NCBI GenBank assembly: GCA_031551485.1
Contig: JAVBNO010000019.1
Span: 7,574 to 71,573 of the forward strand
Length of the DNA stretch: 64,000 bases
Reading direction: 5' to 3'
Origin: Oscillospiraceae bacterium
GTDB taxonomy: Bacteria > Bacillota > Clostridia > Oscillospirales > Ruminococcaceae
Below, piece by piece: positions 29,051 to 44,032 of this stretch. Position numbers and translations under genes: made by a program. The first letter of the stretch is position 1. Each line of letters opens with the position of its first letter. The notes under the pieces were generated by a model. That model was given only the letters and a program-made list of their open reading frames with translations. It was not told the DNA's origin and did no database searches.

Positions 29051-29173
29051 TGGGATTTTATCTGATTTTTATGAAGTCGGCCCCTTTGTGGTATTGCATT
29101 TGATGTACACATATGCTACAATGTTACGGCGGCCAATCGATGGGACATTGTAGGCTGCGAATCAATTGGTATC

Positions 29174-29250
29174 CGGGTGTGGCGCAGATTGGTAGCGCGC
29201 TACCTTGGGGTGGTAGAGGCCGTGGGTTCAACTCCCGCCACTCGGACCAT
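29174..29250 (+). tRNA. tRNA-Pro (anticodon GGG), CCA encoded
   Basis: Manual cloverleaf: acceptor CCGGGTG/CACTCGG (one G-U), D stem GCGC/GCGC, anticodon stem CTACC/GGTAG with loop TTGGGGT, T arm GTGGG-TTCAACT-CCCGC, discriminator A plus CCA. Confidence 0.85.
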
Positions 29251-29305: not shown

Positions 29306-29444
29306 TAGCACCTCTCGTTTTATCCCTCGAAAAACTGCAAAATCCCGATATAATGCAATTCAAAACATAAATGCATACACCTAAAATTTGCTTGTCTTTT
29401 GCCTGGAAGCCGTGTACAATAGGGTTCACTGAGGAGGTGTGGGC

Positions 29445-29666
29445 ATGGCATTAACACAGGAAGATTTACAGGCAATCGGCGCTTTGATGGATCGTAAGCT
29501 AACGGGTGCATTAGAGCCGATTATGGCGGATATAGCGGCTATGAAAGAAGATGTCGAGCAAATCAGGGAGGATACCGCTGTCATGCGGGAAGCCGTCAAC
29601 AGTTTGGGCGAATGGACGGAGATCGCCTCCGATGTGCTGAAAATTAAATATCCTGTTGAAAAATAA
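29445..29666 (+). CDS. Small (73 aa) predicted coiled-coil protein, hypothetical, monocistronic
   Basis: GGAGG lies 7 nt before ATG 29445. The sequence is helical and acidic (MADIAAMKEDVEQIREDTAVMREAVNSL). It has its own terminator. Confidence 0.55.
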   Translation: MALTQEDLQAIGALMDRKLTGALEPIMADIAAMKEDVEQIREDTAVMREAVNSLGEWTEIASDVLKIKYPVEK

Positions 29667-29671
29667 AAGTA

Positions 29672-29713
29672 GCGGGCTACCTCCACAACGGAAGCGGCCC
29701 GCGCTTTCTTTTT
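29672..29713 (+). terminator. Intrinsic terminator
   Basis: Stem GCGGGC … GCCCGC followed by GCTTTCTTTTT. Confidence 0.65.
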
Positions 29714-30193: not shown

Positions 30194-30222
30194 TTGATTA
30201 TATTCCCCAAAAGGAATATAAT
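30194..30222 (+). promoter_or_regulatory. Sigma-70-type promoter for the HTH / membrane-LuxR transcription unit
   Basis: TTGATT-17 nt-TATAAT. The spacer contains the palindrome ATTCC-N6-GGAAT, a possible operator. Confidence 0.45.
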
Positions 30223-30244
30223 ATTGGTAATTGGAGGCTGCCAT

Positions 30245-30418
30245 ATGCAAACGTACATTTCAACATCAGAAGCCGCCGAAAAGTGGAGAATCCCACAACG
30301 CCGGGTGAAAGTCCTCTGTGCCCACAACAGGATTATCGGGGTTATGAGAGTGGGCAGAGTTTGGGCTATTCCCGCCAATGCCGAAAAACCCCCAGACGCG
30401 CGGAAGAAGAAGGACTGA
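30245..30418 (+). CDS. Small helix-turn-helix DNA-binding protein (57 aa)
   Basis: GGAGG ribosome-binding site. ISTSEAAEKWRIPQRRVKVLCAHNRIIGVMRVGRVWAIP is a typical short MerR/excisionase-like HTH. Lys-rich tail. Confidence 0.65.
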   Translation: MQTYISTSEAAEKWRIPQRRVKVLCAHNRIIGVMRVGRVWAIPANAEKPPDARKKKD

Positions 30419-30438
30419 ATATAGACCAAGAGGTGGGC

Positions 30439-31893
30439 ATGATGGAGGAAGAATCCAGCCATAGCCGCAATTACATATCCCATTTGCTATCATCCATCGG
30501 GAGACTTTGGAATGCACAGGAAACGCTGAATGTCAGAAACGTTCGGCTCAGCCATTTGCCATACTTTCTTGCGTTTCCGCTGGCGATGATCTTTGTCAAC
30601 ACGCAGGAGCACCTGTTTGCGGAGCAGGCGGGGCTGTTCAGCCTTAGCGGCGGATCAGTCGCCTTTATCGGGTACTGCCTCGGCGCCGCCCTGCTGTTTG
30701 TGTTCGCGCATACCGGGAACATGTCTAAGTTGTCAAAAGGATTTTCCGTTCTGGCACTGATCGGGTTCGTTTTGTGGCTCATCATGCCGGGCGGTATGCT
30801 TGGGCTGCTGTTCGCGTTTCTGTTCATGTTTGGTGTCGGCGGCTGCATGTCCAGCGGTACTTTCTCCTTTTGCTTTATTTTGAATAATGCTGAACGGTTT
30901 TGGGGGAGCGCCGCCGTCCTGCTTTTTCAGGGCCTCGCATTCGCGAACTCAGGAGGGACATTTGTGCCTTCCGCATTGATGAAGGTGTTCCTGATCATTA
31001 TAATCGCCGGCATAGTCATCTGCGCGTTTGCCTGCCGGACAGAGAGCTTTACCGAAGCGGGAAAACGGCCGAAAGGCCAGTTCGGCCCCGCCGTGTGGCT
31101 GATGTATTTTCTCTTTATGGCCTATTTCTACATCGAGTTCATCATAAGCCCTGTTCCCATTTTTCAAGGTGCCGGCGCCTTACTGTGGCGTGGCATGTTC
31201 TCGGTAACTGCGGTTTTTTTATGTGCCATTATCCAGGTATTATTGCGGCGCAGCCTTTGGACGTTGTGGAATCTGTCGTTTATCGCCGCCATCGGGTGCG
31301 TCGCTATAGCGCTTGCCAGCCAGCCGGAGGCTGCCAACGCGCTTCGCGGCCTGAAATCCGTCGGTTATTTCGCGTCATTTTACCTGATCGGGTGCGTCTC
31401 CAACCGGTTTTGCGATTTCCGCATGTTCAAGCGCCTGATATTCCTTGTGATGATGTCGTGCATCCCCATCTATATCGTGCCGGAACTCCTGTCCGGTACC
31501 GCTTACATGATACCTGCGGCAATAGGCCTGTCGAGCGCCCTGTTTGTCGTGTTCCTGATGCTGTCGCCGGCTTTCGCGAAACATCTGTTCTTCGCGGAAT
31601 GGTCGGAAAATCTGCGTATGCTCACCATGTCGGAAGCGCAGGCGCACGTCGAGAAAGCCGATTCGTTTGAAAAATTGAACCTCACACAGCGCGAAAAAGA
31701 AATAGCGGCATTGCTGCTACAGGGAATGGCAGTAAAAGAGCTTGCCGCCGAACTTGACATATCGTTTGACACAGCCAGATTTCACAACAAGAACCTGTAC
31801 AAAAAACTCGGTATCGTAAGCCGCTCGGAACTGTTTGCCCGCTTTGGTGCGGAAGCTAAAAATGCGGTTGAACAAACGCCGCGCCCCCAATAA
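30439..31893 (+). CDS. Polytopic membrane protein (~10-12 TM) with a C-terminal LuxR/FixJ-type HTH
   Basis: About 400 aa of hydrophobic helices, then LTQREKEIAALLLQGMAVKELAAELDISFDTARFHNKNLYKKLGI. The start at MMEEESS (ATG 30439, ribosome-binding site AGAGGTGGG) was chosen because the upstream part of the long ORF is occupied by the HTH gene in another frame. Confidence 0.8.
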   Translation: MMEEESSHSRNYISHLLSSIGRLWNAQETLNVRNVRLSHLPYFLAFPLAMIFVNTQEHLFAEQAGLFSLSGGSVAFIGYCLGAALLFVFAHTGNMSKLSKGFSVLALIGFVLWLIMPGGMLGLLFAFLFMFGVGGCMSSGTFSFCFILNNAERFWGSAAVLLFQGLAFANSGGTFVPSALMKVFLIIIIAGIVICAFACRTESFTEAGKRPKGQFGPAVWLMYFLFMAYFYIEFIISPVPIFQGAGALLWRGMFSVTAVFLCAIIQVLLRRSLWTLWNLSFIAAIGCVAIALASQPEAANALRGLKSVGYFASFYLIGCVSNRFCDFRMFKRLIFLVMMSCIPIYIVPELLSGTAYMIPAAIGLSSALFVVFLMLSPAFAKHLFFAEWSENLRMLTMSEAQAHVEKADSFEKLNLTQREKEIAALLLQGMAVKELAAELDISFDTARFHNKNLYKKLGIVSRSELFARFGAEAKNAVEQTPRPQ

Positions 31894-31926
31894 ACAGCAT
31901 CTCAAGATATAATCACACTGAGGATG

Positions 31927-31960
31927 ATACCCTGCCGCACCCAGGCAGGGTATTTTTTTT
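31927..31960 (+). terminator. Strong intrinsic terminator
   Basis: Stem ATACCCTGCC / GGCAGGGTAT followed by T8. Confidence 0.85.
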
Positions 31961-32034
31961 GCCCACCTACCCAAAGATGTAGCTATACAAATCGGTACTC
32001 CGCAGGTAAAAATGGAATTACGAGGAGGTGCCGT

Positions 32035-32271
32035 ATGGATATTTTGAAAAACGCTTCCGGGGAAAGCGTCACCTTGACACCGCGGGAGCGAGAGGTCTTT
32101 CAGCTTCTACTTAAAGGCATGAAGGAGAAAGAAATTGCGGGCGCGCTCCATATCAGCCGGTCGGGGGTCGGCTTCTTCACCAAAAGAATCTATAAGAAGC
32201 TCGACGTCAATTCAAAACCCGAGCTGATATTGCGCTACTACAATTTCGGCGGATCTAAAGAGGGGGAATAA
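32035..32271 (+). CDS. LuxR-family HTH 'solo' (78 aa; no receiver or ligand domain)
   Basis: GAGGAGG ribosome-binding site. LTPREREVFQLLLKGMKEKEIAGALHISRSGVGFFTKRIYKKLDV. The stop lies 2 nt before the giant ORF start. Confidence 0.8.
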   Translation: MDILKNASGESVTLTPREREVFQLLLKGMKEKEIAGALHISRSGVGFFTKRIYKKLDVNSKPELILRYYNFGGSKEGE

Positions 32272-32273
32272 TC

Positions 32274-35200
32274 GTGAAACAGTTGACAGGAGCCTGGAAC
32301 TGGATCCAAAAGCAATTCAAAGTACATACGACCAGATCATTGCTCATATCCATACCTGCCGCCGCACTCATCACAGCCGGGGTTTTATGGGCCTGCGGCA
32401 TTTTATCACTGGAATCGTGGAGCTATCTGCCTAATCGTGAATACATCCTCGCGCCGACGGAACCAGCAGAACCGCAGACACTGAATGAGCTGCTACACAG
32501 CGACATGCCTAGCATGGATACCCTTTTGCAAAACCCCTCCATTGCGCAGGAGCTGCTCAATGCCAAAACGCTAACCGACGTTGTGGATTCGCGGCTGGCC
32601 CTAAACAATCTTCATGATCTGGATGTTCAGCTTGCGGCCCAGCTTGCGGAGGATCCAGAAACCATTGATGTGGTCGATATGGAATCGGCACAGATCAATG
32701 CAGTATCGGCGAGCCATTCCGAGAAAGCTGTCATTACCTCTCTTGTGTATACACCGGGTGATCACAGCGCCGAGCAGCTTGCCACAACCAATGCCTTGCA
32801 AAATCAATACCAGACTATGGCGACGCTCAAAGCGGCCACCGGCCAGCTGCTCGCCCCCAAGGAATACGACGACCTTGTCGTGATGCCTATCGCCATGAAT
32901 ATGAAGGGTATCGTCGACGACGGTGAGGCGATGATTCACCTGCTCCCGGCGGGCGACTGGCTGCCGACAGATGGATATAAACTTTACCGCGAGGTAGACG
33001 GGCAAAGCGTACTGATCGCCGAAAATGTCGCATCGCCCAGTGCCGCGCTCGCCGGCGGCGTCGGGGGGGAACATGCTTTGAAGGTTCAGGCGCTATACAA
33101 GCAGGCCGAGCTTTCCGACGCCAAGCTCTCACAGCTCGGCATGACGGCCTCCCAGTTCCGCGAGACGGCCTACCGCATGGACACGGCGGAGAGCAAAACC
33201 CGTATCAGTGGCCAGAATAACTTTATGAGAATGCACGAACTGCTCATCACTGAGCCCAACGGCAATGAGCAGAAAATTCCCGAGACCGACCTGATGCTCG
33301 GCTCACCCGTTGTTGTAATGGGCAGGCAGGCAAACGGACTCTATCAAAGTGCCGCCGTTCAAAGCAGGATTTGGAAACAGTTCTCACTCATTCCCTCAGC
33401 GCTGCCTTCCGGCATTGACAGTATCCAGACACTGCCTAATGGCCAAGCAAAGTATAGGCTTGCCGCAGAGATCATGGCGGCGCGGCAGCAAATTTCCACC
33501 CTCAGCTTTGTGGACGATGCGTTTGCCGAGGAAGCCGGCTTTTTGATTCGCGACGATCTTTCGACGCTTGGCCTTGACGACGGAACAACGGTCACCTATC
33601 GCGTCGAAACGCCAGATCATCAAACCTCAACGCTCGAAATCGCCTACGGATATACCAATACACTGACAAAGCCGCAAGGCCTGATGGGCTACGGCATTGA
33701 CGGCAAGGTACCGCTGCGCTGGAATGCGGCGGAAAACCCGCAGGAGCGCGGCATCATCAGCGGGTATATGATCGAACGAAAACTCGACGGCGAAAGCAAG
33801 TTCACGGTGGTTAATGGGGAACCGGTCGCCATCACATACATACTCAACGAAAACGACATCTATTTCGAAACGCTGTCCTTTTACGAAGACGCCGTGGAAA
33901 ATGGAAGAACCGCCGAGTACCGCATCCGTTCTCTGGACATCTTCGGCCGCATGAGCAAGCCGTCGGATGTCATCAAGTTTAAAGTAGAGCAGGTCACCCC
34001 GCCTAACGCGCCGACGGTGAGCGCTCCGGTATTTTCCAGGGACGGCAGCAGCGCGTCCATCGGCGAAATGATAGCGGTACAAAATGCAATTAACCAAAAC
34101 AAAGGAAAAACGGGTATCGTGCTGCCGGTGTTCACCGATTCAGCGGACACTGTGCGCTTCACCATTTACCGTGCCGAAGCCGTGGGCGCGCGGCCCTTTG
34201 GTAAGCCGGTACCCATTGCCAACCTTTCGTATGACAACCCCAAACCAAAAGCGGAAGCAACTGCGTCTTCCGAGCCCTTGACGGAGCCCGTGCCGCAGGA
34301 GCAGGCGCAGACCGGGATTAAGAGGGTAAACGGCACGCAACAGACGCTGCTGCAGAACGCCGCGGCAAGCTATCCCGACCTGGTGTATTATGACGCGGAC
34401 ATCAAGGAAGGTGTCACCTACAAATACTGGGTTTCGGTTTGGGATAGCTGGAACAACGAGAGCGCGTGGTCGCAGTCGGTTTCGTATGGCGTAAGGACCG
34501 GGGCGGAACCCGCAACTCCCGCGGCGCTTAACGCCGCCATGCTCGTTCGGGAGCTCCCCGATCGCTCAAACGATCCGCCCGGATTGGTGAACGATTCCAC
34601 CGTGACGCTCGCCAATCTGGCGCAAATGCCGACAATGCCCGTTCGGAAGATCCCCGGCACCGATGCCGATACGGTCAAGCGGGCTGACGAGAGCGGTATC
34701 GCCATCGGCCATTTCATGAGTGTTGCCGGTATGCCGGATGTGATTGACAAGCAATTCGACAACCTGCCCGAGCAGAAGTATATCCATATGCTGGTGGCCG
34801 TGCGCGGCGAGGATGTGCAGCCTAACGGCGGCGCGTGGCTCCAGTGGCCCGCCTATTCCGGCGAAGGGCTGGGCGGATACGCGGTATACAGGCCCGTCTT
34901 TCCCGTAGGCGCATTACCCGATTTACAGCAGATGAGCCGCAGCGAGCTGATTCAGCTGGGCACATGGAAAAAAACGACAAGCAACACGGTTACGCAGAAT
35001 CAGCTCTTCGTCACCGGCCTGGACAAAACGCCGGGGAAAATCCATCTGTTTCTGATCTGCTTGCTTCCGGAAACGGAAGGAACGACAGCGTCGATAGAAA
35101 CTGATGGAAAAAAAGAAACCATTTTCGTTCCCGAGGGGCTGCAGCACGCGCAAGCGCCGATCTATTCCCCGCATCAAATCATTTTTGCTGAGGATTTGTA

Positions 35201-38200
35201 CTCCTATCGGGATTACTATCATGAAATCGAGGGACTTGAGTTAACGTGGGAGGCCGCGGCGGGAAATCCGGAATATGCCGTCTTCATGATTGAAGTTCCG
35301 CGAGAGTTGCCTTCATTAAGCATCGATAAATACAAACAAATGTCCGTTGAGGAGCTTTGGAACCTGGGCGGCTGGAAGCGAATGTTGACCACCTCCAAAA
35401 CAAACGCCGTGATCAGCGAAACCTCCTATTCGCATTTAGTGGATACGATGCCGATCATCGCCGTATGCGTACAGACGGGCAGTAAAAACATCACCGATAT
35501 CACGCGTGAGCAATCTGTCGACTTGAGTATTGACTTATTAACATCAAAGACTGCCCAAGAGATTCACGCGGGTTTTGTTTCGCTGGATTGGGATATTCCC
35601 GACGACCCGCAGGTGCAGTTCTACCGCGTCTACCGCGCGGAAGTGAACTCCTTCAAGACCCCGGTGGACGAATCAGCACTTGCGTGGACGCTGGTGGGGG
35701 ACCGGCTGAGTTCTCCCCAGTACACCGACCCGGTGGAGCAGAGCCGCGCACACTTCTATTACTACAAAGTCACATCGGTTTCACCTTGGGGCGTGGAGGC
35801 TGCGGCGGGAACGGTAAAACCGTTTCGCGTGCCGGCCACCAAGCCGCCGCAGACGCCTAATCTGCTTACGCCGCTGCAGAGTAAGGACGGCATAAAAGTC
35901 AACTTTGCCGCCGTGCCGTACTGCGATAAATATGTGATTTATCGGACAGCCATTACGAACGTAAGCGATGAGTATCTAACCAGGCTGAACAGCAATGTAA
36001 AGACCGCGTTATTTTCCAGCCCTTCGTTGGAGGATGAATTCCTCACCTCTCTATTGGGCAGCTCCATTAAGCTCAGCGGAAAGCCGGGGCTGCAAACACC
36101 GCTCAATGCCGCCAGCCGGTTCAAAACGCTACATTACGGAGACGCCAGCCGGGTATCGGGGCTTGATACCGGCACAAAGCTATCCACATACCAACAAATC
36201 CTCAATGACCTCGGCCCGCTTGCCCTGGCCGATTACCGCGATCTTTCGATTGAGATGATGAAACGGGTCACGTGGGAAAATATAGGTGAACTGCGCGTTG
36301 ATTATGAAACCGGCGCGGTGCTCGACCCGAATACTGGCAATCCTGTCGACCCAGTTGATCCCGCCACAGGTTTGCTCAAGCCGCTCTATTTCATTGATCC
36401 AACGCCCCAATACGGCATCATGTACTTATACACTGTGCAGGCCTGGAACGACGACGGCCTTGGTTCCACGCGGCCGGAACCCATTGAGGCGACACCAAGG
36501 CGAAGCGGGCCGTTCGATCCCATCAAGAATCTGAAAGGGGAGTGGGTGAACAAGCAGCCCCTGCTGACGTGGAACACGCCCAGGATGTCCACTCTCACGC
36601 CGGAGCGCTGCCTTGAGGAGACAGTCGGCTATATTGTCTACCGTTCCGACACCAAGAACGGCGAATACTATCAGGCAAGCCCCATGGTATTCGCGCCTAC
36701 ATGGACGGACAAAAATGCCGACCCGTATGCGTATAACTGGTATCGCATCAAGGTGTTGGATACCGGTGGCTACCTCAGCGAGTTTTCCGATCCGATACTG
36801 ATGCAAATGAATTTCGTCAGCACGGTAAAGCCCAAAATTCCGCATTTTTCGCTCGACCCTCTGCAGGCGCCGACAATTGCCTTTGAACGTAACCGCTATA
36901 CGGTCGCCTTGCGTATACCTTTTGAGGCGAGCTATACGCTTACAGGCACGGAGCCGATAGAGGTGACTGTTACGGCGGTGGATGCCAACGGATCGCCGGT
37001 GACAGGATTCACAGTGGACGCAACGGCGAAGAAGGTGCTTGCGGGGCCGGCATTGGGCGTCGGCACTTACAGCGTCACGGTCCAGGCAGAGAACGCGGCG
37101 GGCACGGACCAAAAGGATTTTGTGCTCACCGTTGGCGAACCGGAGGCGCGCACGCCACCGAAGCTGGCGACGCGCGACGATCAGTATACCTTTGTCTTTT
37201 CGCGCCCGGCCAGGCCGACGGGCACATTTGAAGAGCAGCTTGCCGCCACAGGCAGCATACCGCTGACCTGGTCGCTGGAGCCGTATGTGGAAGCCACGGG
37301 AATGCCAAGTACGGTGCCGGAAACGGTGAGCATAGATCAAAACGGCTTATTAAGCATCGAGCAGCAAACTGCCGCCGGCAGTTACTTCTTCTACGTCGTC
37401 GTCAGCAACGCTATGGGCAGCGACAAGCAGCTCATCCATATGGAAATCGCGAATGCTTCCGCGCTATCCCAAACATTCAGGCCAAGAGGGGTCTCTGTGT
37501 CAAGTGGGCGAAGTGAAGGAACGATGCCGCTGGTACAGCTTGTCGTGTCGGAACAGAAGCCAGCAGATAAAGGCGGCTATTACAGCGACAGCGCGGATTG
37601 CGCAGGCTTTACGCTGGCCGATGTCAGCCTTATCCCTTCCTCTGCAAGTGCGCCGCACTCGCCAGGCTATGTCGGCACCGCAACGCTGAACCTGGAAGGC
37701 GTGGAGCCAATCCCGGTGCACATTTACGGCGCGACCATGCAGACCACGTCGGACGGGGAAGTGATGACCGTCGGGACGGTCTATCTTGATCAGCCGGTGG
37801 TACTGAAGGCCACCGGTGTCACACTGGTCAGCATGGACATTAACCCGAAAAACGAGAAGCAGACCGTAAGCGGATATGTAAAAAGCACCAAGCCCAATCA
37901 AAACGTGATGGGCAGCACCTACGCCGTGGCGTTTACCGATGCCGTCCTGTCGCCGCAAGGCACTGTAAACGCCGCCGTCACGATACCCACGCTCAAGTAT
38001 GAACAATTCGTGTTGCACAACATCGACAACGTTCAGATCAGGCTGCCGAGCACGGCTTCAGATACGTTCTTCCTGATGGCCTCCTGCAAGCAAGTGACGA
38101 TGAAAGCGCCGCTGGAGACGCTCAGTAACGAGGGCATCACTTTTGGCGCAGGCTCGTACGGCTTTGACTTGGACGGCAAAATAAGCGGCACCATGGTGGC

Positions 38201-41200
38201 GGTGGAGCAGGAGCAATTCCTGCAACTGCTGGTGCCCGGCGGATCGGGCCTGCGCGTCAAGGCGAAGCTGACCTTCACGCACGGCGTGGCGCAGTCCGAC
38301 AGCTATATCCGTGGGCGGCTGATTCTGCCCTTCGAGCGGGCGGACGCAGTGGGCAGCGGCGTGCCTGGGGTCTATGCGGGTGTGCACCCCAAGACCAGCC
38401 TGATGGATGCGCTCGCCGATGTCAATCTGGGTGACGTACAGAGGGTTAAAGACCATCTGGCGCAGGGCGACCTTTCCATTCTCGACAGCCTCATACTCAA
38501 ATTTGGGCAAAATGTTCAGGAAAACGCGCTGCTCATCGTGCCGGGCGACAAGGCATTGCAGGATGAGTGCGGGTACGTGGACTTTAACGTCAAAAACTGG
38601 AGCGGTAAGGGCTTTATGGTGGAGTCCGCCGCGATGACGCCGACGCGCATGGCCGAGCGCGCCATGTCCATCAATCTGCAACGCAGTCAGGCCATCGTCA
38701 TCGCTCCTACCTCCGTCTCGATTGATCTCGATCGGGAGAAATTCCACCCCGTTGCGGGTGGCGGTGAGAACCCTCTCATACAGACACCCAAGGAGACGGA
38801 AAAACCATTCTGGGTCGGTTTGGTGATGAAAGGTGGTACGGTGGCGCTGCCGCCGGACTTTGTCGAGACGGCGGAGGGCGGCTCCATCCTCTTCGGCCTG
38901 GCCGAGGGCGAAATGATCTACGACCTCAACGGCTTTAGCTACCAAAACTATCTGTACAGCGATGACAAGGACGGCGTGCCGGCGCAGTTTGGAGACAGCC
39001 TGGGTGGTTTTGAGGATGTGCGCGTGTTCGACTGCCTGCTTGACATGTATGCCAACCGTGTCAACCTTGAGATCAATGCCAAGGTCAGGCTGGATCTATT
39101 CAACAACAACTGGGTCAATGCCAGGCTCTACACCAACAAGGAGAACAATGACGACGGCCAAAAAGGATCGTTCCTCTGCTCCGTCGCGCCCACGGTGATT
39201 GAAGGCGCCAACGGTGCGGGCGTCGATCTGAACATCGACGGCGGGTTTTTAAAGCCCGACGGGCTACACATTAACGGCAATATAATGGTGGACACCCCAG
39301 AAGTGCAAACCGACTCCGAAGAGCCGCTTGCCTTTATCGACATGATCGTGCCGTCCAAAGCCGAAATGACCAATCGCGAGAATAACAGGGAAAATATATG
39401 GGCCAACGTTACGCTCGACAAGCCGACCCCCATTACCTTTCAAGGCTTTTCCATGGAAATTCGGGCACTGGATTTGGAATACTCGGAAGCCAAGACAATT
39501 GAGCAGAAAAAAGCGGCCGGCACCGTCATCGCCCTTCCGCAGAGCGGCTATCCGACCTATTTATCGCTGCATGGGTCGACAGTATTGTCGGAAAACATAG
39601 CAATGGGGCAAGACACGACCGACACCGTCAAACTGGAATGCCGAAAATCGGACATTGTCCCGGTTGTGCTGTACGAAGAGTGCGCTTCGGTGCTGGACGC
39701 GAATTTCGACGACTGCATCAGCGTCAAGGGCAAACTGGTACCCAAGCTCACCGGGTCGGACTTGACCGTTCCAGGCGGCGCGAGTAATATGAGCGCCAAC
39801 ACAAAGGACACTGCCCCACATATCATGCTATTGTCCGCCGGAACTGCGCCCGCCGTCCCGGCCCTGCCGCAAATCCCCGCGCTCCCCAACGCCGAGAGCA
39901 TTTTGAAGGATGCGAAGGCCACTGCCGAAGAAAAGCTTGCGGCCTACAAAAAAGCGCTGAAAGACGAGATTGACCAGTACAAGAAAGCGGTTGAGGCAGA
40001 GCTGGCCAAATACAAGGACATGACGGAGGCGGAGGCGAAGAAGTATCGCGAAGCGGCCGAAAAACAGCTTGAGGAATATAAAGGCAAAGCTGTCGACGAG
40101 CTGGAAAAATACCTGGACATCACCCAGGAGGAACTTAAACAATACAAGGAAGAGCTGGAAAAAGAGCTCGGCGAGTACATCGATTTGGGCAAGCTTGGTG
40201 CGGGGCTCATTGAGTTTAACACAGAGCAGTTGGATCTGAACTACCTCAGCCAGCTCAAGTCGCTGCCGGTTGTGACCAAAACGCGCTTTGGGTATGACAT
40301 GGACAACGAGCGTTGCTATTTCGCTGTGGGCCTTATGCCCAAGAATAAGCCAGGAAGCAACAAGGAGACTATAGCAATCAACTTTGGCGCAGGCGATATC
40401 CGCAATTTCACCGGCATCGTCACCTATAACATGGTCGTAAAGCGCGACGCGCAGGGCAGACATGAGTTCCCTGCCCAGCCGGGAGAAATCGCCGCATTCA
40501 TCAAGAACATGTCGGTTTACAGGGAATCGGGCAGTACCTTCGCCGCCGGCATCCGGGGCACAATGAAAATCATCGGCTTTTGCGAGATCCGCGAGCTGTA
40601 CTTCGGCTTTGAGAAAGGCCCTATCATTAACGCAGACGGCGGTATCTACATTCCGCTGGATGTGGCAGGGATGATCAGTGGCGACGGCATGGAAAAGGTC
40701 GGTACGGTCGCTATCCTTTACGACCACCCCAACCGCTATTTCTCCTTCAGCATGACGCTTGACGGCATCGATCTAGTCGCGGCGAAAGTCAGCGGCAGTA
40801 TGGGATTTGAGTTCAGCCCGCACATGTTCGGCGTCTCGCTGGGCTATCCGGAGACCATGGCCGGCAACATTTCCATCTTCCGGTTCGGTGTTGGCATCGG
40901 GTTCCGCATCGACAGCGAGGAAGGCAACTACATCAGAGCCAAGCTGGAGGTCGGACTGCAAAAAGATGTGAAGGTCGCCATCGTCTACCTCAGCGGATAC
41001 CTCTACGCCGGAGCCGATGGAGGGTATTATTGGGGTGGCACGGATAAAGGCAATGGATTTTATCTGACTATTTACCTGAAAGGCGGCATAAAGGGCGGCA
41101 TTATGCTGGGCGAAGCTCGCTGGGATATCATCAAACTGATGCTCGACGCGCGGGGTACCATTAGCTCGCTTCCCCCGAGCAAAGACTGGAATCTGCACTG

Positions 41201-41303
41201 CTCGGCCAAGGTCAGCTACTGTCTCGACTTGTTCCTCTTCTCAATCGACGGCTCGGTCGAGGCCTCGTTTGATACGACAATAGCGGCGCCGCAGATAGTG
41301 TAA
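32274..41303 (+). CDS. Giant (3,009 aa) N-terminally anchored modular protein: FN3-like and Ig-like repeats, a large unassigned region, an 11-mer helical array and a beta-rich C-terminal domain
   Basis: Uninterrupted 9,030-nt ORF with a GTG start after AAAGAGGGGG. One N-terminal TM segment (SLLISIPAAALITAGVLWACGIL). Six FN3-type signature pairs (x-Y-R 'YRVYRAE'-like strand plus 'YxYxVxAxD..G..S' strand). Two Ig-like modules (36870-37450). Confidence 0.9.
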   Translation: MKQLTGAWNWIQKQFKVHTTRSLLISIPAAALITAGVLWACGILSLESWSYLPNREYILAPTEPAEPQTLNELLHSDMPSMDTLLQNPSIAQELLNAKTLTDVVDSRLALNNLHDLDVQLAAQLAEDPETIDVVDMESAQINAVSASHSEKAVITSLVYTPGDHSAEQLATTNALQNQYQTMATLKAATGQLLAPKEYDDLVVMPIAMNMKGIVDDGEAMIHLLPAGDWLPTDGYKLYREVDGQSVLIAENVASPSAALAGGVGGEHALKVQALYKQAELSDAKLSQLGMTASQFRETAYRMDTAESKTRISGQNNFMRMHELLITEPNGNEQKIPETDLMLGSPVVVMGRQANGLYQSAAVQSRIWKQFSLIPSALPSGIDSIQTLPNGQAKYRLAAEIMAARQQISTLSFVDDAFAEEAGFLIRDDLSTLGLDDGTTVTYRVETPDHQTSTLEIAYGYTNTLTKPQGLMGYGIDGKVPLRWNAAENPQERGIISGYMIERKLDGESKFTVVNGEPVAITYILNENDIYFETLSFYEDAVENGRTAEYRIRSLDIFGRMSKPSDVIKFKVEQVTPPNAPTVSAPVFSRDGSSASIGEMIAVQNAINQNKGKTGIVLPVFTDSADTVRFTIYRAEAVGARPFGKPVPIANLSYDNPKPKAEATASSEPLTEPVPQEQAQTGIKRVNGTQQTLLQNAAASYPDLVYYDADIKEGVTYKYWVSVWDSWNNESAWSQSVSYGVRTGAEPATPAALNAAMLVRELPDRSNDPPGLVNDSTVTLANLAQMPTMPVRKIPGTDADTVKRADESGIAIGHFMSVAGMPDVIDKQFDNLPEQKYIHMLVAVRGEDVQPNGGAWLQWPAYSGEGLGGYAVYRPVFPVGALPDLQQMSRSELIQLGTWKKTTSNTVTQNQLFVTGLDKTPGKIHLFLICLLPETEGTTASIETDGKKETIFVPEGLQHAQAPIYSPHQIIFAEDLYSYRDYYHEIEGLELTWEAAAGNPEYAVFMIEVPRELPSLSIDKYKQMSVEELWNLGGWKRMLTTSKTNAVISETSYSHLVDTMPIIAVCVQTGSKNITDITREQSVDLSIDLLTSKTAQEIHAGFVSLDWDIPDDPQVQFYRVYRAEVNSFKTPVDESALAWTLVGDRLSSPQYTDPVEQSRAHFYYYKVTSVSPWGVEAAAGTVKPFRVPATKPPQTPNLLTPLQSKDGIKVNFAAVPYCDKYVIYRTAITNVSDEYLTRLNSNVKTALFSSPSLEDEFLTSLLGSSIKLSGKPGLQTPLNAASRFKTLHYGDASRVSGLDTGTKLSTYQQILNDLGPLALADYRDLSIEMMKRVTWENIGELRVDYETGAVLDPNTGNPVDPVDPATGLLKPLYFIDPTPQYGIMYLYTVQAWNDDGLGSTRPEPIEATPRRSGPFDPIKNLKGEWVNKQPLLTWNTPRMSTLTPERCLEETVGYIVYRSDTKNGEYYQASPMVFAPTWTDKNADPYAYNWYRIKVLDTGGYLSEFSDPILMQMNFVSTVKPKIPHFSLDPLQAPTIAFERNRYTVALRIPFEASYTLTGTEPIEVTVTAVDANGSPVTGFTVDATAKKVLAGPALGVGTYSVTVQAENAAGTDQKDFVLTVGEPEARTPPKLATRDDQYTFVFSRPARPTGTFEEQLAATGSIPLTWSLEPYVEATGMPSTVPETVSIDQNGLLSIEQQTAAGSYFFYVVVSNAMGSDKQLIHMEIANASALSQTFRPRGVSVSSGRSEGTMPLVQLVVSEQKPADKGGYYSDSADCAGFTLADVSLIPSSASAPHSPGYVGTATLNLEGVEPIPVHIYGATMQTTSDGEVMTVGTVYLDQPVVLKATGVTLVSMDINPKNEKQTVSGYVKSTKPNQNVMGSTYAVAFTDAVLSPQGTVNAAVTIPTLKYEQFVLHNIDNVQIRLPSTASDTFFLMASCKQVTMKAPLETLSNEGITFGAGSYGFDLDGKISGTMVAVEQEQFLQLLVPGGSGLRVKAKLTFTHGVAQSDSYIRGRLILPFERADAVGSGVPGVYAGVHPKTSLMDALADVNLGDVQRVKDHLAQGDLSILDSLILKFGQNVQENALLIVPGDKALQDECGYVDFNVKNWSGKGFMVESAAMTPTRMAERAMSINLQRSQAIVIAPTSVSIDLDREKFHPVAGGGENPLIQTPKETEKPFWVGLVMKGGTVALPPDFVETAEGGSILFGLAEGEMIYDLNGFSYQNYLYSDDKDGVPAQFGDSLGGFEDVRVFDCLLDMYANRVNLEINAKVRLDLFNNNWVNARLYTNKENNDDGQKGSFLCSVAPTVIEGANGAGVDLNIDGGFLKPDGLHINGNIMVDTPEVQTDSEEPLAFIDMIVPSKAEMTNRENNRENIWANVTLDKPTPITFQGFSMEIRALDLEYSEAKTIEQKKAAGTVIALPQSGYPTYLSLHGSTVLSENIAMGQDTTDTVKLECRKSDIVPVVLYEECASVLDANFDDCISVKGKLVPKLTGSDLTVPGGASNMSANTKDTAPHIMLLSAGTAPAVPALPQIPALPNAESILKDAKATAEEKLAAYKKALKDEIDQYKKAVEAELAKYKDMTEAEAKKYREAAEKQLEEYKGKAVDELEKYLDITQEELKQYKEELEKELGEYIDLGKLGAGLIEFNTEQLDLNYLSQLKSLPVVTKTRFGYDMDNERCYFAVGLMPKNKPGSNKETIAINFGAGDIRNFTGIVTYNMVVKRDAQGRHEFPAQPGEIAAFIKNMSVYRESGSTFAAGIRGTMKIIGFCEIRELYFGFEKGPIINADGGIYIPLDVAGMISGDGMEKVGTVAILYDHPNRYFSFSMTLDGIDLVAAKVSGSMGFEFSPHMFGVSLGYPETMAGNISIFRFGVGIGFRIDSEEGNYIRAKLEVGLQKDVKVAIVYLSGYLYAGADGGYYWGGTDKGNGFYLTIYLKGGIKGGIMLGEARWDIIKLMLDARGTISSLPPSKDWNLHCSAKVSYCLDLFLFSIDGSVEASFDTTIAAPQIV
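39945..40178 (+). repeat. Seven exact 33-nt (11-codon) periods marked by eight Tyr codons inside the giant ORF
   Basis: TAC/TAT codons fall at 39945, 39978, 40011, 40044, 40077, 40110, 40143 and 40176. Units are Y-KKALKDEIDQ / Y-KKAVEAELAK / Y-KDMTEAEAKK / Y-REAAEKQLEE / Y-KGKAVDELEK / Y-LDITQEELKQ / Y-KEELEKELGE / Y. Confidence 0.95.
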
Positions 41304-41349
41304 AATAAAGGCCTTTCTGCAAGGAGAATGATAAAATACGAAAAGGTAT

Positions 41350-41382
41350 GCGGGGCATGTAGATGGGTACTGCACGCCCCGC
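41350..41382. terminator. Hairpin downstream of the giant ORF (weak terminator candidate)
   Basis: Stem GCGGGGC / GCCCCGC with a 19-nt loop. There is no clean U-run on the plus strand. Confidence 0.3.
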
Positions 41383-41802: not shown

Positions 41803-42276
41803 TTACTCGTGATGTTCGGCAGCTTCCGCATCCAACTTTGTTTTATGTACCGTACCGTGCGGATGCTGAACAGGTGCATAGATCGAATACAACTTAATCG
41901 GCACATTTCCGGTATTGACAAGATTGTGCCATATGCCGGCTGGAACAAAAACCGCCGAGCCGTCGCGCACCTGTTTTTGAAAGTTCAAGATGTCCTTGTT
42001 GCTTCCCATCATGGCAATGCCGTGCCCGGCCTCGACACGCAGGAACTGGTCCAGATAAGGATGAGACTCCAGGCCAATTTCACCGCCTACAGGTATACTC
42101 ATGAGCGTTAATTGCAAATGATTGCCAGTCCACAAGGCTGTTCTGAAATTTGGGTTTTGCTGGGTTTTCCTGCTGATATCTACGACAAACGGCTCCGGCC
42201 CGTAATCCACTGTGCGCTGTTTGTAATATGGATCCATATATCCCGCACAATTGTTGCTTCTAGGCATTTTTTTCAC
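41803..42276 (-). CDS. Cupin-domain protein
   Basis: Cupin motifs GGEIGLESHPYLDQFLRVEAGHG and AVFVPAGIWHNLVNTG. Confidence 0.8.
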   Translation of the reverse strand: MKKMPRSNNCAGYMDPYYKQRTVDYGPEPFVVDISRKTQQNPNFRTALWTGNHLQLTLMSIPVGGEIGLESHPYLDQFLRVEAGHGIAMMGSNKDILNFQKQVRDGSAVFVPAGIWHNLVNTGNVPIKLYSIYAPVQHPHGTVHKTKLDAEAAEHHE

Positions 42277-42406
42277 CCTTTCGCTTTTTATGGTTTCCCA
42301 TTACACCATATTATGCCGAAATTCCGTTTTTTGCTTGTCAACGGCAGGACACTAGAAGCCTGCCAATAACGCTTCGACAACCTCCACGGGGAAATCTGGC
42401 GGTGGG

Positions 42407-42601
42407 TCAATCAGAAGCGAATGTAAAAAGCTTTGGGTGTTTTGCCTTGTGGCACCATAAATCCGACTTTGCTGTTTTACACTGGGGGCATATCCATTTG
42501 CTGGAAAGCTGCTCCCACGGTGTACCCGGCGCAACCCCGGCGGCGGGCATTCCTTCCGTTTCATTGTAACCATAGCCGCAAAAAGGGCATATGTATTTCA
42601 C
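42407..42601 (-). CDS. Rubredoxin (with a C-terminal extension)
   Basis: Two CxxC knuckles (YICPFCGY … WICPQCKTAK) with the intervening GVAPGTPWEQL. A GTG start after GAAGGAGA is preferred to the upstream ATG at 42634. Confidence 0.75.
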   Translation of the reverse strand: MKYICPFCGYGYNETEGMPAAGVAPGTPWEQLSSKWICPQCKTAKSDLWCHKAKHPKLFTFASD

Positions 42602-42777
42602 AATCTCATCTCCTTCGACTGCCACCGATGCCACATAATTTCATATTCAATTAATATATGTCGCAAGGTAAAACGATATGATCTATTGTGCCGACTATTT
42701 GGTTAGCGGCAACTGTCGAAAAAGCTTTTGCCTATCAGAAATTTGTGCAGTCCCAGCATTTTATCCGAGGTGTTTCA

Positions 42778-42806
42778 TTTGTGAGACGCCGGGATTGTGA
42801 TATAAT
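42778..42806 (+). promoter_or_regulatory. Extended -10 promoter upstream of the MFS gene
   Basis: TGATATAAT (TGnTATAAT) at 42798-42806. The -35 is weak (TTTGTG). Confidence 0.35.
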
Positions 42807-42880
42807 CAAGTAACATATAATGATATAGTGATACCATGCTTGCTCCGATCCAATGAATCGTACGAAAAGAGGGTTGACCG

Positions 42881-44032
42881 GTGAAACATAATTCCCGCAA
42901 CATCGTAACAATATCTTTGCTGTCAATCCCACTTTCCGCGGGAGTCGCTTTAGTGCCCGTGTTGTCCAACATTGCCGCCGCTTTTCCGAATCAAAAAGAA
43001 TCCATGCAGCTGCTGCTCACCATGCCATCTTTATTTATGATGTTTTCGTCCCTGCTCACCAATACATTCGCTCAGAAGAGTTCATTAAAATTAATTGTGA
43101 TCATAAGCATTTCAATGATTGCTTTTGCGGGTTTATCTCCCTACTGGATCATCGGTTTTACTTATTTGTTATTTTCCCGCGGCCTGATGGGAATAGGGCT
43201 GGGACTGCTTCATACAGCAATTGTAAGTTTGCCAGCACTTTATTTTAATGACAGTCAAACGCGGGATCATGCCGTCGGCATTCAGTCCGCTTTTGTGTGC
43301 GCCGGGGCAATACTATTTCATCTTTTAAGTGGTATCCTTGCAAAATATAACTGGAGATATGTTTTTTTAGTCCAGTTTTTAAATGTCATTCCTTTGCTGG
43401 CGGCCATTTTTTTAATGCCGAAAACAGCAAACGATAGAAAGACAGAATCAAAGCATCAGAGAATATTTGTCAAACACGCCATACCTATAGTCGGGATTAC
43501 TTTTATTGGCATTGTACTCACCTGCACTTATCCTTTAAATCTATCGTTGTTTGTTGAAAAGCAGGGTTTGGGTGATTCACAATTTGTAGGTCTGCTGACG
43601 AGTATCAACTCCGCCATTGGTTTTTTCATTGGCTTGATTTTCGGTAAAGTATACGCAAAAGTGAGAGAGTATACTTTGTCCCTTGGATTTATATTATCGG
43701 CGGTTGCTTTGCTGATTGTTGCCTTCTTACCCAATCCAGCCATGTTATTGTTGGGCAGTATTTGTTTTGGCATAGGCACAAGTTTTATATCGCCGTCCCT
43801 ATATTCAATATTGTATAAACGGGTAAAACCGGAGGAAGTCGTTTCGTCTGTCGCAATGCTGGCGATAGCGGGCAACGTGTCCCAATTTATTTCACCCTTT
43901 GTTATCAATCCCATCGCAAAAATCATCGATGGTACCAGTGCAGAGGGTACAAGGTTTGTTGTTGCAGGTGCTGCCATATTTCTTTTGGCCATTTTTCTCT
44001 ATTGGCAAAACCATAAAAAGGCAGGCATATAA
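42881..44032 (+). CDS. MFS transporter (about 12 TM)
   Basis: 383-aa polytopic protein, markedly more AT-rich than the surrounding genes. GTG start after AAAAGAGGG. Confidence 0.75.
   Translation: MKHNSRNIVTISLLSIPLSAGVALVPVLSNIAAAFPNQKESMQLLLTMPSLFMMFSSLLTNTFAQKSSLKLIVIISISMIAFAGLSPYWIIGFTYLLFSRGLMGIGLGLLHTAIVSLPALYFNDSQTRDHAVGIQSAFVCAGAILFHLLSGILAKYNWRYVFLVQFLNVIPLLAAIFLMPKTANDRKTESKHQRIFVKHAIPIVGITFIGIVLTCTYPLNLSLFVEKQGLGDSQFVGLLTSINSAIGFFIGLIFGKVYAKVREYTLSLGFILSAVALLIVAFLPNPAMLLLGSICFGIGTSFISPSLYSILYKRVKPEEVVSSVAMLAIAGNVSQFISPFVINPIAKIIDGTSAEGTRFVVAGAAIFLLAIFLYWQNHKKAGI

Follow-up and report, generated by a model that had tools for sequence, protein, structure and literature searches.

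We propose that a stretch of 64,000 nucleotides (nt) from an Oscillospiraceae bacterium (contig JAVBNO010000019.1; the whole stretch is referred to below as the window) carries a regulatory cassette with two promoters that controls the gene of a giant cell-surface protein, in which a membrane-spanning LuxR-type regulator activates the second promoter by way of a palindromic operator, a reading to which we assign a probability of about 60%. The cassette comprises four genes, all on the + strand as judged from the sequence and the list of its open reading frames (ORFs). These encode a 57-aa helix-turn-helix (HTH) protein designated HTH57 (30245–30418, ATG start), a 484-aa polytopic transmembrane (TM) protein with a LuxR-type HTH designated TM-LuxR (30439–31893, ATG start), a 78-aa protein that is a LuxR-type HTH only (32035–32271, ATG start and TAA stop) and the giant protein of 3009 aa (32274–41303, GTG start). 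Every feature that an earlier note on this DNA had drawn from the sequence is present where it was placed, as seen from the ORFs, Pfam and a consensus scan for promoters and terminators. Its suggestion that the regulators gate the giant gene is supported, as a deduction about regulation, by the comparisons below, and none of the outcomes that it had named as contrary to that suggestion appeared in the analyses as run.

The evidence that carries this proposal lies for the most part in the intergenic region between the TM-LuxR gene and the 78-aa gene. The strongest intrinsic terminator of the region (31926–31960, + strand), with an 11-bp stem at 31926–31954, a 7-nt loop and a run of eight T residues, closes the first transcription unit here, essentially where it had been called before (31927–31960). 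Just 3' of it is a 20-bp palindrome, ACCTACCCAAAGATGTAGCT (31965–31984), with the core CCTAC-N8-GTAGC, which was found by aligning the spacers between TM-LuxR and small HTH genes and which we refer to as the operator. A core promoter on the + strand, P2 (31984–32012), is made up of a weak -35-like element TATACA (31984–31989), a 17-nt spacer and a -10 element TAAAAA(T) (32007–32012), the distance from the operator to the -10 box being 41 nt. The predicted P2 transcription start is near 32019, with the centre of the palindrome at approximately -44.5, and the 78-aa gene has the Shine-Dalgarno (SD) sequence GAGGAGG at 32022–32028.

A scan of one genome per species yielded more than 263 relatives of TM-LuxR, nearly all of them in uncultured Clostridia-type (Bacillota) metagenome-assembled genomes (MAGs), and the operator recurs among them. 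The exact core CCTAC-N8-GTAGC is present in 48 of 121 loci, once in each and always between the TM-LuxR stop codon and the next gene, and with at most one mismatch it lies no more than 400 nt downstream of that stop in 46 of 80 distinct loci, where 0.35 would be expected (background of 25 hits in 2.3 Mb). The site ACCTACCCAAAGATGTAGCT is the sole exact match in the 64-kb window. In 40 distinct sequences the -10 consensus TAaAAT is found at a fixed +41 to +46 from CCTAC with an information content above 1 bit, together with a common, weak -35-like TATnnA at +18 to +23. Under a strict hairpin-plus-T-run rule, 17 of 39 distinct loci have a terminator no more than 65 nt upstream of the operator. 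This succession of recurrent terminator, conserved operator and -10 element at fixed distance agrees with the two transcription units that had been suggested for the window. Where TM-LuxR is convergent with the giant gene (L035, L108/109), the operator is found upstream of the giant gene and on the strand of that gene, and it is absent upstream of giant genes without an adjoining TM-LuxR.

Two other loci deserve mention for their operators. In L063 there are two copies (1457–1474 and 1893–1910), each with its own -10 element, that flank the small HTH gene on its 5' and 3' sides. In L091, at about 560–600, a degenerate remnant of a window-type operator, GACCCACCCGGTAGGTATACAAAA, with a deletion, is situated upstream of a giant-gene homologue, and no TM-LuxR is visible on this short contig.

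The layout of P2, with a palindrome centred at approximately -44.5, a good -10 and a poor -35, is, as read from its elements, that of the activator-dependent type of promoter; for comparison, the lux box is centred at about -42.5. Control of the opposite sign can be envisaged, with TM-LuxR repressing P2 until released by its ligand, or with the small HTH protein as a repressor subject to negative autoregulation, and would be in keeping with the position of the palindrome directly against the -35-like element. Repression is within the repertoire of LuxR/GerE-type HTH proteins, and GerE both activates and represses. However, the position of the centre, the poor TATnnA and the good -10 form the usual arrangement for activation, and the membrane-spanning LuxR proteins that have been characterised are activators (Dong et al., 2022; PMC9734109), so that we regard repression as distinctly unlikely.

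Variation of the operator among the relatives goes together with variation of the TM-LuxR recognition helix. The helix xHTANFHIKN is found with the operator CCTACYA..TTRGTAGC, the helix DTA[KR][FY]H of the window clade with CCTACCCAAAGAKGTAGC, and xSTxNFHIKN with operators whose right half is GATAGC, L062 showing a symmetric double change to CCTAT..ATAGC. Proteins with the helix STVSTYSK are associated with another palindrome, TCCCAA-N2-TTGGGA, which follows the terminator at an unchanged position. This covariation is suggestive of TM-LuxR as the binder. As the classes of helix and operator are largely clade-bound on a neighbour-joining tree of the TM domain, we have dropped a claim of independent covariation events. 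The operator is also kept in loci devoid of a small HTH gene, among them the giant-gene loci L035, L070, L108 and L055, and because it is present in many such loci TM-LuxR is, on this comparative evidence, the common factor at the operator.

The STVSTYSK clade (L007, L008, L010, L011, L017, L031, L053, L058, L059, L067 and L075) has a further peculiarity in the first 120 nt after the TM-LuxR stop codon. The terminator hairpin itself contains TCCC-N6-GGGA, a repeat of the same palindrome kind as the operator that comes next, TCCCAA-N2-TTGGGA. The first target gene in this clade encodes a conserved protein, about 105 aa long, that has the motif W..ILP...PPEGM..EKQWR.

In Pfam searches the 78-aa protein has a GerE HTH over nearly its whole length (E = 2e-16) and no other domain. 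A receiver and an autoinducer-binding domain (PF03472) were not found, as had been supposed from the sequence. The name 'LuxR solo' given to it previously is not appropriate in the quorum-sensing sense, because the protein is without an autoinducer domain, and it is better described as GerE-like. It is part of a separate, well-conserved family whose members consist of the HTH alone, and its closest solved relatives are ComA-C (E = 8e-8), NarL-C and GerE (1fse_A, E = 2e-5). An alternative can be built on these properties, in which the 78-aa protein is the true activator at the operator and the part of TM-LuxR is limited to modulating that protein, perhaps through heterodimers or by retaining it at the membrane as long as there is no signal. 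The proteins that it resembles bind DNA alone, its recognition helix ANYFIKQIYRKL is similar to that of TM-LuxR, ANFHIKNLYKKL, and this helix shifts in the same clades as the operator. Three of ten TM-LuxR relatives tested (P0078, P0106 and P0081) carry tandem GerE/LuxR HTH domains, two or three units after the 12-TM domain, and these natural fusions hint that two HTH units can cooperate and that extra units work together with the membrane regulator. We nevertheless consider it rather unlikely that the 78-aa protein is the primary activator, as operator and promoter are intact in loci that lack its gene, the presence of the operator tracks the helix class of TM-LuxR, and the small HTH protein is transcribed from the very promoter that it would activate; being made from P2, it would require some other factor to start P2 expression. 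With TM-LuxR as the activator, the most likely role of the 78-aa protein would be feedback on the same operator, amplifying or damping expression, because P2 drives its gene and relatives can dispense with it.

The TM-LuxR protein has a GerE domain (PF00196) at residues 414–465 (E = 8e-14, 51 bits against a cut-off of 23.5). Its 38 full-length homologues (31–75% identity) align end to end with conservation over both the membrane part and the HTH, and because of this we exclude a frameshift fusion, a concern raised in the earlier note; the TM domain of every homologue tested ends in a GerE HTH, and the protein is encoded by a single gene. Exact-sequence look-ups of its translation and of P0001 matched no record. 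An AlphaFold2 (AF2) model built on the homologue alignment (mean pLDDT 79.6, pTM 0.71) predicts 12 membrane helices (6+6) within residues 37–383, the two halves being joined by a Lys/Arg-rich central loop at residues 198–216. The pattern of hydropathy and charge agrees with 12 helices, and from the distribution of charges a cytoplasmic location is predicted for the N-terminus, the central loop and the C-terminal HTH. A conserved juxtamembrane motif, ADWS..F, stands between the TM domain and the HTH. When the model was used in a fold search of the PDB, all 35 matches at E < 1e-3 were transporters of the major facilitator superfamily (MFS), with TM-scores of 0.35–0.59 normalised by target. The prediction thus refines the 10–12 helices of the earlier note to 12, and its suspicion of an MFS-like fold is borne out by the model. 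No MFS signature was found in Pfam, where GerE is the sole match, and there was no NCBIfam match to the TM part.

An exhaustive profile search with the TM domain only retrieved 222 clusters among 1.84 billion representatives, the full-length matches being approximately 460–590 aa in length. All ten of the full-length matches tested, the most distant included, carry a C-terminal GerE domain. Because there are only 222 clusters and all ten proteins tested have the HTH, the membrane domain of TM-LuxR is, by the profile evidence, a small dedicated sensor family and not a transporter with an occasional HTH. The ligand of this sensor domain is probably a small molecule.

The association between TM-LuxR and giant genes is seen in many distant genomes, as the synteny check proposed in the earlier note would have it. 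A giant-gene homologue adjoins TM-LuxR in 10 of 62 informative distinct TM-LuxR loci, and a GerE-like HTH gene lies 110–170 nt downstream in 16 of the 62. Viewed from the giant gene, TM-LuxR adjoins it in 12 of 22 informative metagenome loci, nine of the 12 having a small HTH gene as well. L080 has an HTH_59 gene, TM-LuxR, a small HTH gene and a giant gene in the same order as in the window with unrelated flanking genes. Where the small HTH gene is directly 5' of the giant gene the gap is 2–28 nt; in L062, L027, L088, L116 and L118 two genes that are both missing in the window are interposed, one for a 241-aa DUF3592/DUF2500 membrane protein and one for a 184-aa protein without a Pfam match. 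In the window the GTG start of the giant gene is 2 nt past the TAA of the 78-aa gene, and its SD sequence GAGGGGG is inside the 3' end of the latter. Translational coupling between the two is possible. The giant gene has its own SD, and the gaps in relatives are 11–28 nt.

Such adjacency could be devoid of regulatory meaning if the regulators serve other genes and the giant gene is constitutive, or if the cassette is simply carried by a mobile element for which HTH57 is the excisionase. HTH57 is weakly similar to the excisionase-type HTH_17, a tRNA-Pro gene is situated 1 kb 5' of the cassette, an integrase and a transposase are encoded close to the L080 locus, and approximately 40% of the informative giant homologues have no adjoining TM-LuxR. 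However, the repeated adjacency cannot be due to chance, since the TM-LuxR family is very rare at 222 clusters. The operator moreover tracks the target gene in either orientation, HTH57 always occurs within the TM-LuxR operon, and the integrase is limited to one lineage. A search of the window for an integrase and for att-like repeats of the tRNA-Pro 3' end was empty, and the idea of a mobile island was set aside. We consider an incidental association to be very improbable.

The giant protein has a single N-terminal membrane anchor (residues ~22–48), an Ig-like segment and a coiled coil at residues ~2540–2640, followed by a conserved all-beta C-terminal domain of about 360 aa (window 39900–41300). 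This domain is the best-conserved part of the giant family (45–64% identity), whose members of 2500–3500 aa carry variable PKD and Ig inserts and are unannotated. Searched whole and as 500-aa tiles, the protein gave only sub-threshold Invasin_D3, Big_1 and coiled-coil matches in Pfam and NCBIfam, and a PDB sequence search gave no match. An AF2 model of the last 400 aa (pLDDT 66) returned only weak porin-like matches with Foldseek, all with TM-scores below 0.3 and none of them convincing.

In other loci the first genes after the operator also encode surface or secreted proteins, among them SLH-domain proteins, BspA-type leucine-rich repeat proteins with Fn3 and Listeria-Bacteroides repeats, He_PIG Ig-domain proteins of 1500–1600 aa, and proteins with Cu_amine_oxidN1 or Shr-like HID domains. 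Because of these operator-adjacent genes the TM-LuxR clade appears to be devoted to cell-surface proteins.

The first transcription unit is preceded by P1 (30194–30222, + strand), a near-consensus sigma-70-type promoter for the HTH57/TM-LuxR operon with the sequence TTGATT-17-TATAAT (10 of 12 matches). The inverted repeat ATTCC-N6-GGAAT (30202–30217) in its spacer, with ATTCC at 30202–30206 and GGAAT at 30213–30217, had been pointed out before and is present; the promoter was recovered in the consensus scan. The HTH57 gene has the SD sequence GGAGG (30233–30237), and its product matches HTH_17 and HTH_59 only weakly (18.8 and 19.4 bits, below the cut-off of 27). Homologues of HTH57 were found in 17 loci, many of which are redundant copies (about nine distinct), at -8 to +31 nt from the TM-LuxR start. 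In L002 the equivalent of P1 is TTGACA-ttg-TTCCCTTAAGGGAA-TATAAT with an inverted repeat in the same position, and the spacer palindrome TTCC(C)-N4/6-(G)GGAA is common to L002 and the window. A clade whose HTH57 is only 47% identical has another palindrome, CTTCAA-N4-TTGAAG, which lies over the -35.

The P1 repeat is probably a repressor-type operator for HTH57, and HTH57 is a likely autorepressor of P1 that would keep the membrane regulator scarce, a role that fits because the near-consensus promoters of its homologues carry palindromes over their core elements. A second operator of the P2 type was sought at P1 and elsewhere in the window, where only chance-level matches with two mismatches were found, and autoregulation of P1 through that operator is not supported. 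Judged by their distribution, HTH57 and the 78-aa protein are optional accessories, and the core of the system is TM-LuxR with its operator.

Several points weigh against the proposal that TM-LuxR activates P2 through this palindrome. No such operator is present within 400 nt in 34 of the 80 relatives, and some relatives without the site have other operators or are arranged differently. The covariation between helix and operator follows clades, and for this reason may reflect shared ancestry instead of independent co-evolution. The small HTH proteins likewise differ along these clade lines and could, in loci that have them, be what binds the operator. The preference for activation over repression is drawn from the position of the site and the weak -35 alone. 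The MFS resemblance of the modelled TM-LuxR is structural only, without a Pfam MFS match. Finally, a construct of the Eggerthella lenta regulator DadR without its TM domain is inactive (PMC9734109), so that a free HTH is not necessarily an activator.

From the genes, the fold, the terminator, the operator and its constant spacing from the -10, the association of this operator with TM-LuxR, and the surface-protein targets, we infer what binds the operator, the sign of regulation, what kind of ligand is sensed and what HTH57 and the small HTH protein do. In the resulting model, P1 would drive HTH57 and TM-LuxR jointly, with HTH57 repressing P1, and the terminator would insulate P2 from P1. TM-LuxR would be a membrane-integrated one-component regulator, whose MFS-fold domain, with both ends in the cytoplasm, would sense the signal, and whose conserved juxtamembrane linker would couple this sensor domain to the LuxR/GerE HTH. 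A dimer of the HTH would bind ACCTAC-N8-GTAGCT, centred at about -44.5 of P2, and upon receipt of the signal TM-LuxR would activate P2 to produce one transcript for the 78-aa HTH protein and the 3009-aa membrane-anchored protein. The 78-aa protein, where present, would then feed back on the same operator. It is also conceivable, and in our view improbable, that the membrane tether is itself the mechanism, TM-LuxR holding the locus at the membrane and so coupling transcription, translation and insertion or secretion ('transertion'), with the GerE-like HTH locking the promoter on to give a bistable display that varies from cell to cell.

The surroundings of the cassette are as follows. A tRNA-Pro(GGG) gene at 29173–29249, 1 kb 5' of the cassette, is the sole RNA family match in an Rfam scan, and is followed by a 75-aa ORF (29439–29666), a terminator-like hairpin (29690–29708) and approximately 490 nt of AT-richer non-coding DNA. 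On the 3' side of the giant gene there is a GC-rich hairpin (41350–41382, + strand), a possible terminator with a weak U tail (z = -2.3). Beyond it, the region 41803–44032 contains cupin-like and rubredoxin-like ORFs on the minus strand, and a gene for a 383-aa polytopic membrane protein at 42881–44032 has a GC content of 0.41 against approximately 0.55.

LuxR regulators with 10–12 TM helices were described in E. lenta in 2022 (Dong et al., PMC9734109), and as a class TM-LuxR is therefore not new. The 12-TM proteins DadR, CadR and HcdR of that organism are substrate-responsive activators of adjacent catechol dehydroxylase genes, and the TM domains of regulators of this type share less than 20% identity among themselves (PMC9734109). 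They have in common with TM-LuxR an N-terminal polytopic domain of about 12 helices with a C-terminal PF00196 HTH, a one-component membrane-integrated logic in which ligand sensing by the TM domain is proposed, and a location beside their target genes, regulation of the target being deduced in our case. The E. lenta class has its hosts among the Coriobacteriia (Actinobacteria) and its targets among molybdenum and flavin reductases, whereas the window type is hosted by Clostridia (Oscillospiraceae-type MAGs) and would act on giant or large surface proteins. The TM domain of the window type constitutes a family of its own, and its 222 clusters are far below what would be expected if many Coriobacteriia paralogues were detectable; the match to the E. 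lenta class is at the level of architecture. TM-LuxR further differs in the operator, the insulating terminator and the accessory HTH proteins that accompany it, and text searches of the E. lenta paper (PMC9734109) gave no operator, promoter layout or accessory HTH proteins as defined here.

A literature search for TM-LuxR proteins in Firmicutes, or tied to surface proteins, returned the E. lenta work only. The view that no such circuit had been described holds for the clostridial form, linked to surface proteins and equipped with an operator, and fails for the membrane-LuxR class. As far as we have found, neither the operator and promoter code nor the tie to giant surface proteins is described in the literature searched, within which no operator and promoter architecture had been predicted before for a membrane-spanning LuxR regulator; our prediction includes a code between recognition helix and operator across clades. 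The class is extended from gut Actinobacteria, where it is concerned with metabolic enzymes, to Clostridia and their cell-surface proteins, including a function-unassigned family of 2500–3500 aa. The binding site, the transcription start and the activator dependence are predictions specific enough for direct testing.

Other systems resemble the cassette in part. ToxR, CadC and TcpP likewise have a membrane-tethered DNA-binding domain that acts on a promoter without a phosphorelay, although theirs is an N-terminal winged helix of the OmpR type joined by a single TM helix to a periplasmic sensor, whereas in TM-LuxR the sensor is 12-TM and MFS-like and the LuxR HTH is C-terminal. TM-LuxR shares with MFS transporters and 'transceptors' the twelve-helix 6+6 plan with a central cytoplasmic loop, although it lacks a Pfam signature and no family member without an HTH was seen among the ten tested; the MFS-like fold of the modelled sensor domain suggests that a transporter scaffold has been recruited as a receptor. 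Close parallels to the 78-aa protein are GerE of Bacillus subtilis (PDB 1fse) and the isolated C-terminal domains of NarL and ComA. GerE equals it in size, is likewise a LuxR-type HTH that stands alone, and also controls structural surface genes, those of the spore coat. For the 78-aa protein, no sign of a link to sporulation or sigma-K was seen, and its recognition helix has Gly where Thr is usual in the family; it also differs in that its gene would share a transcript with the presumed target and has a membrane LuxR as its partner.

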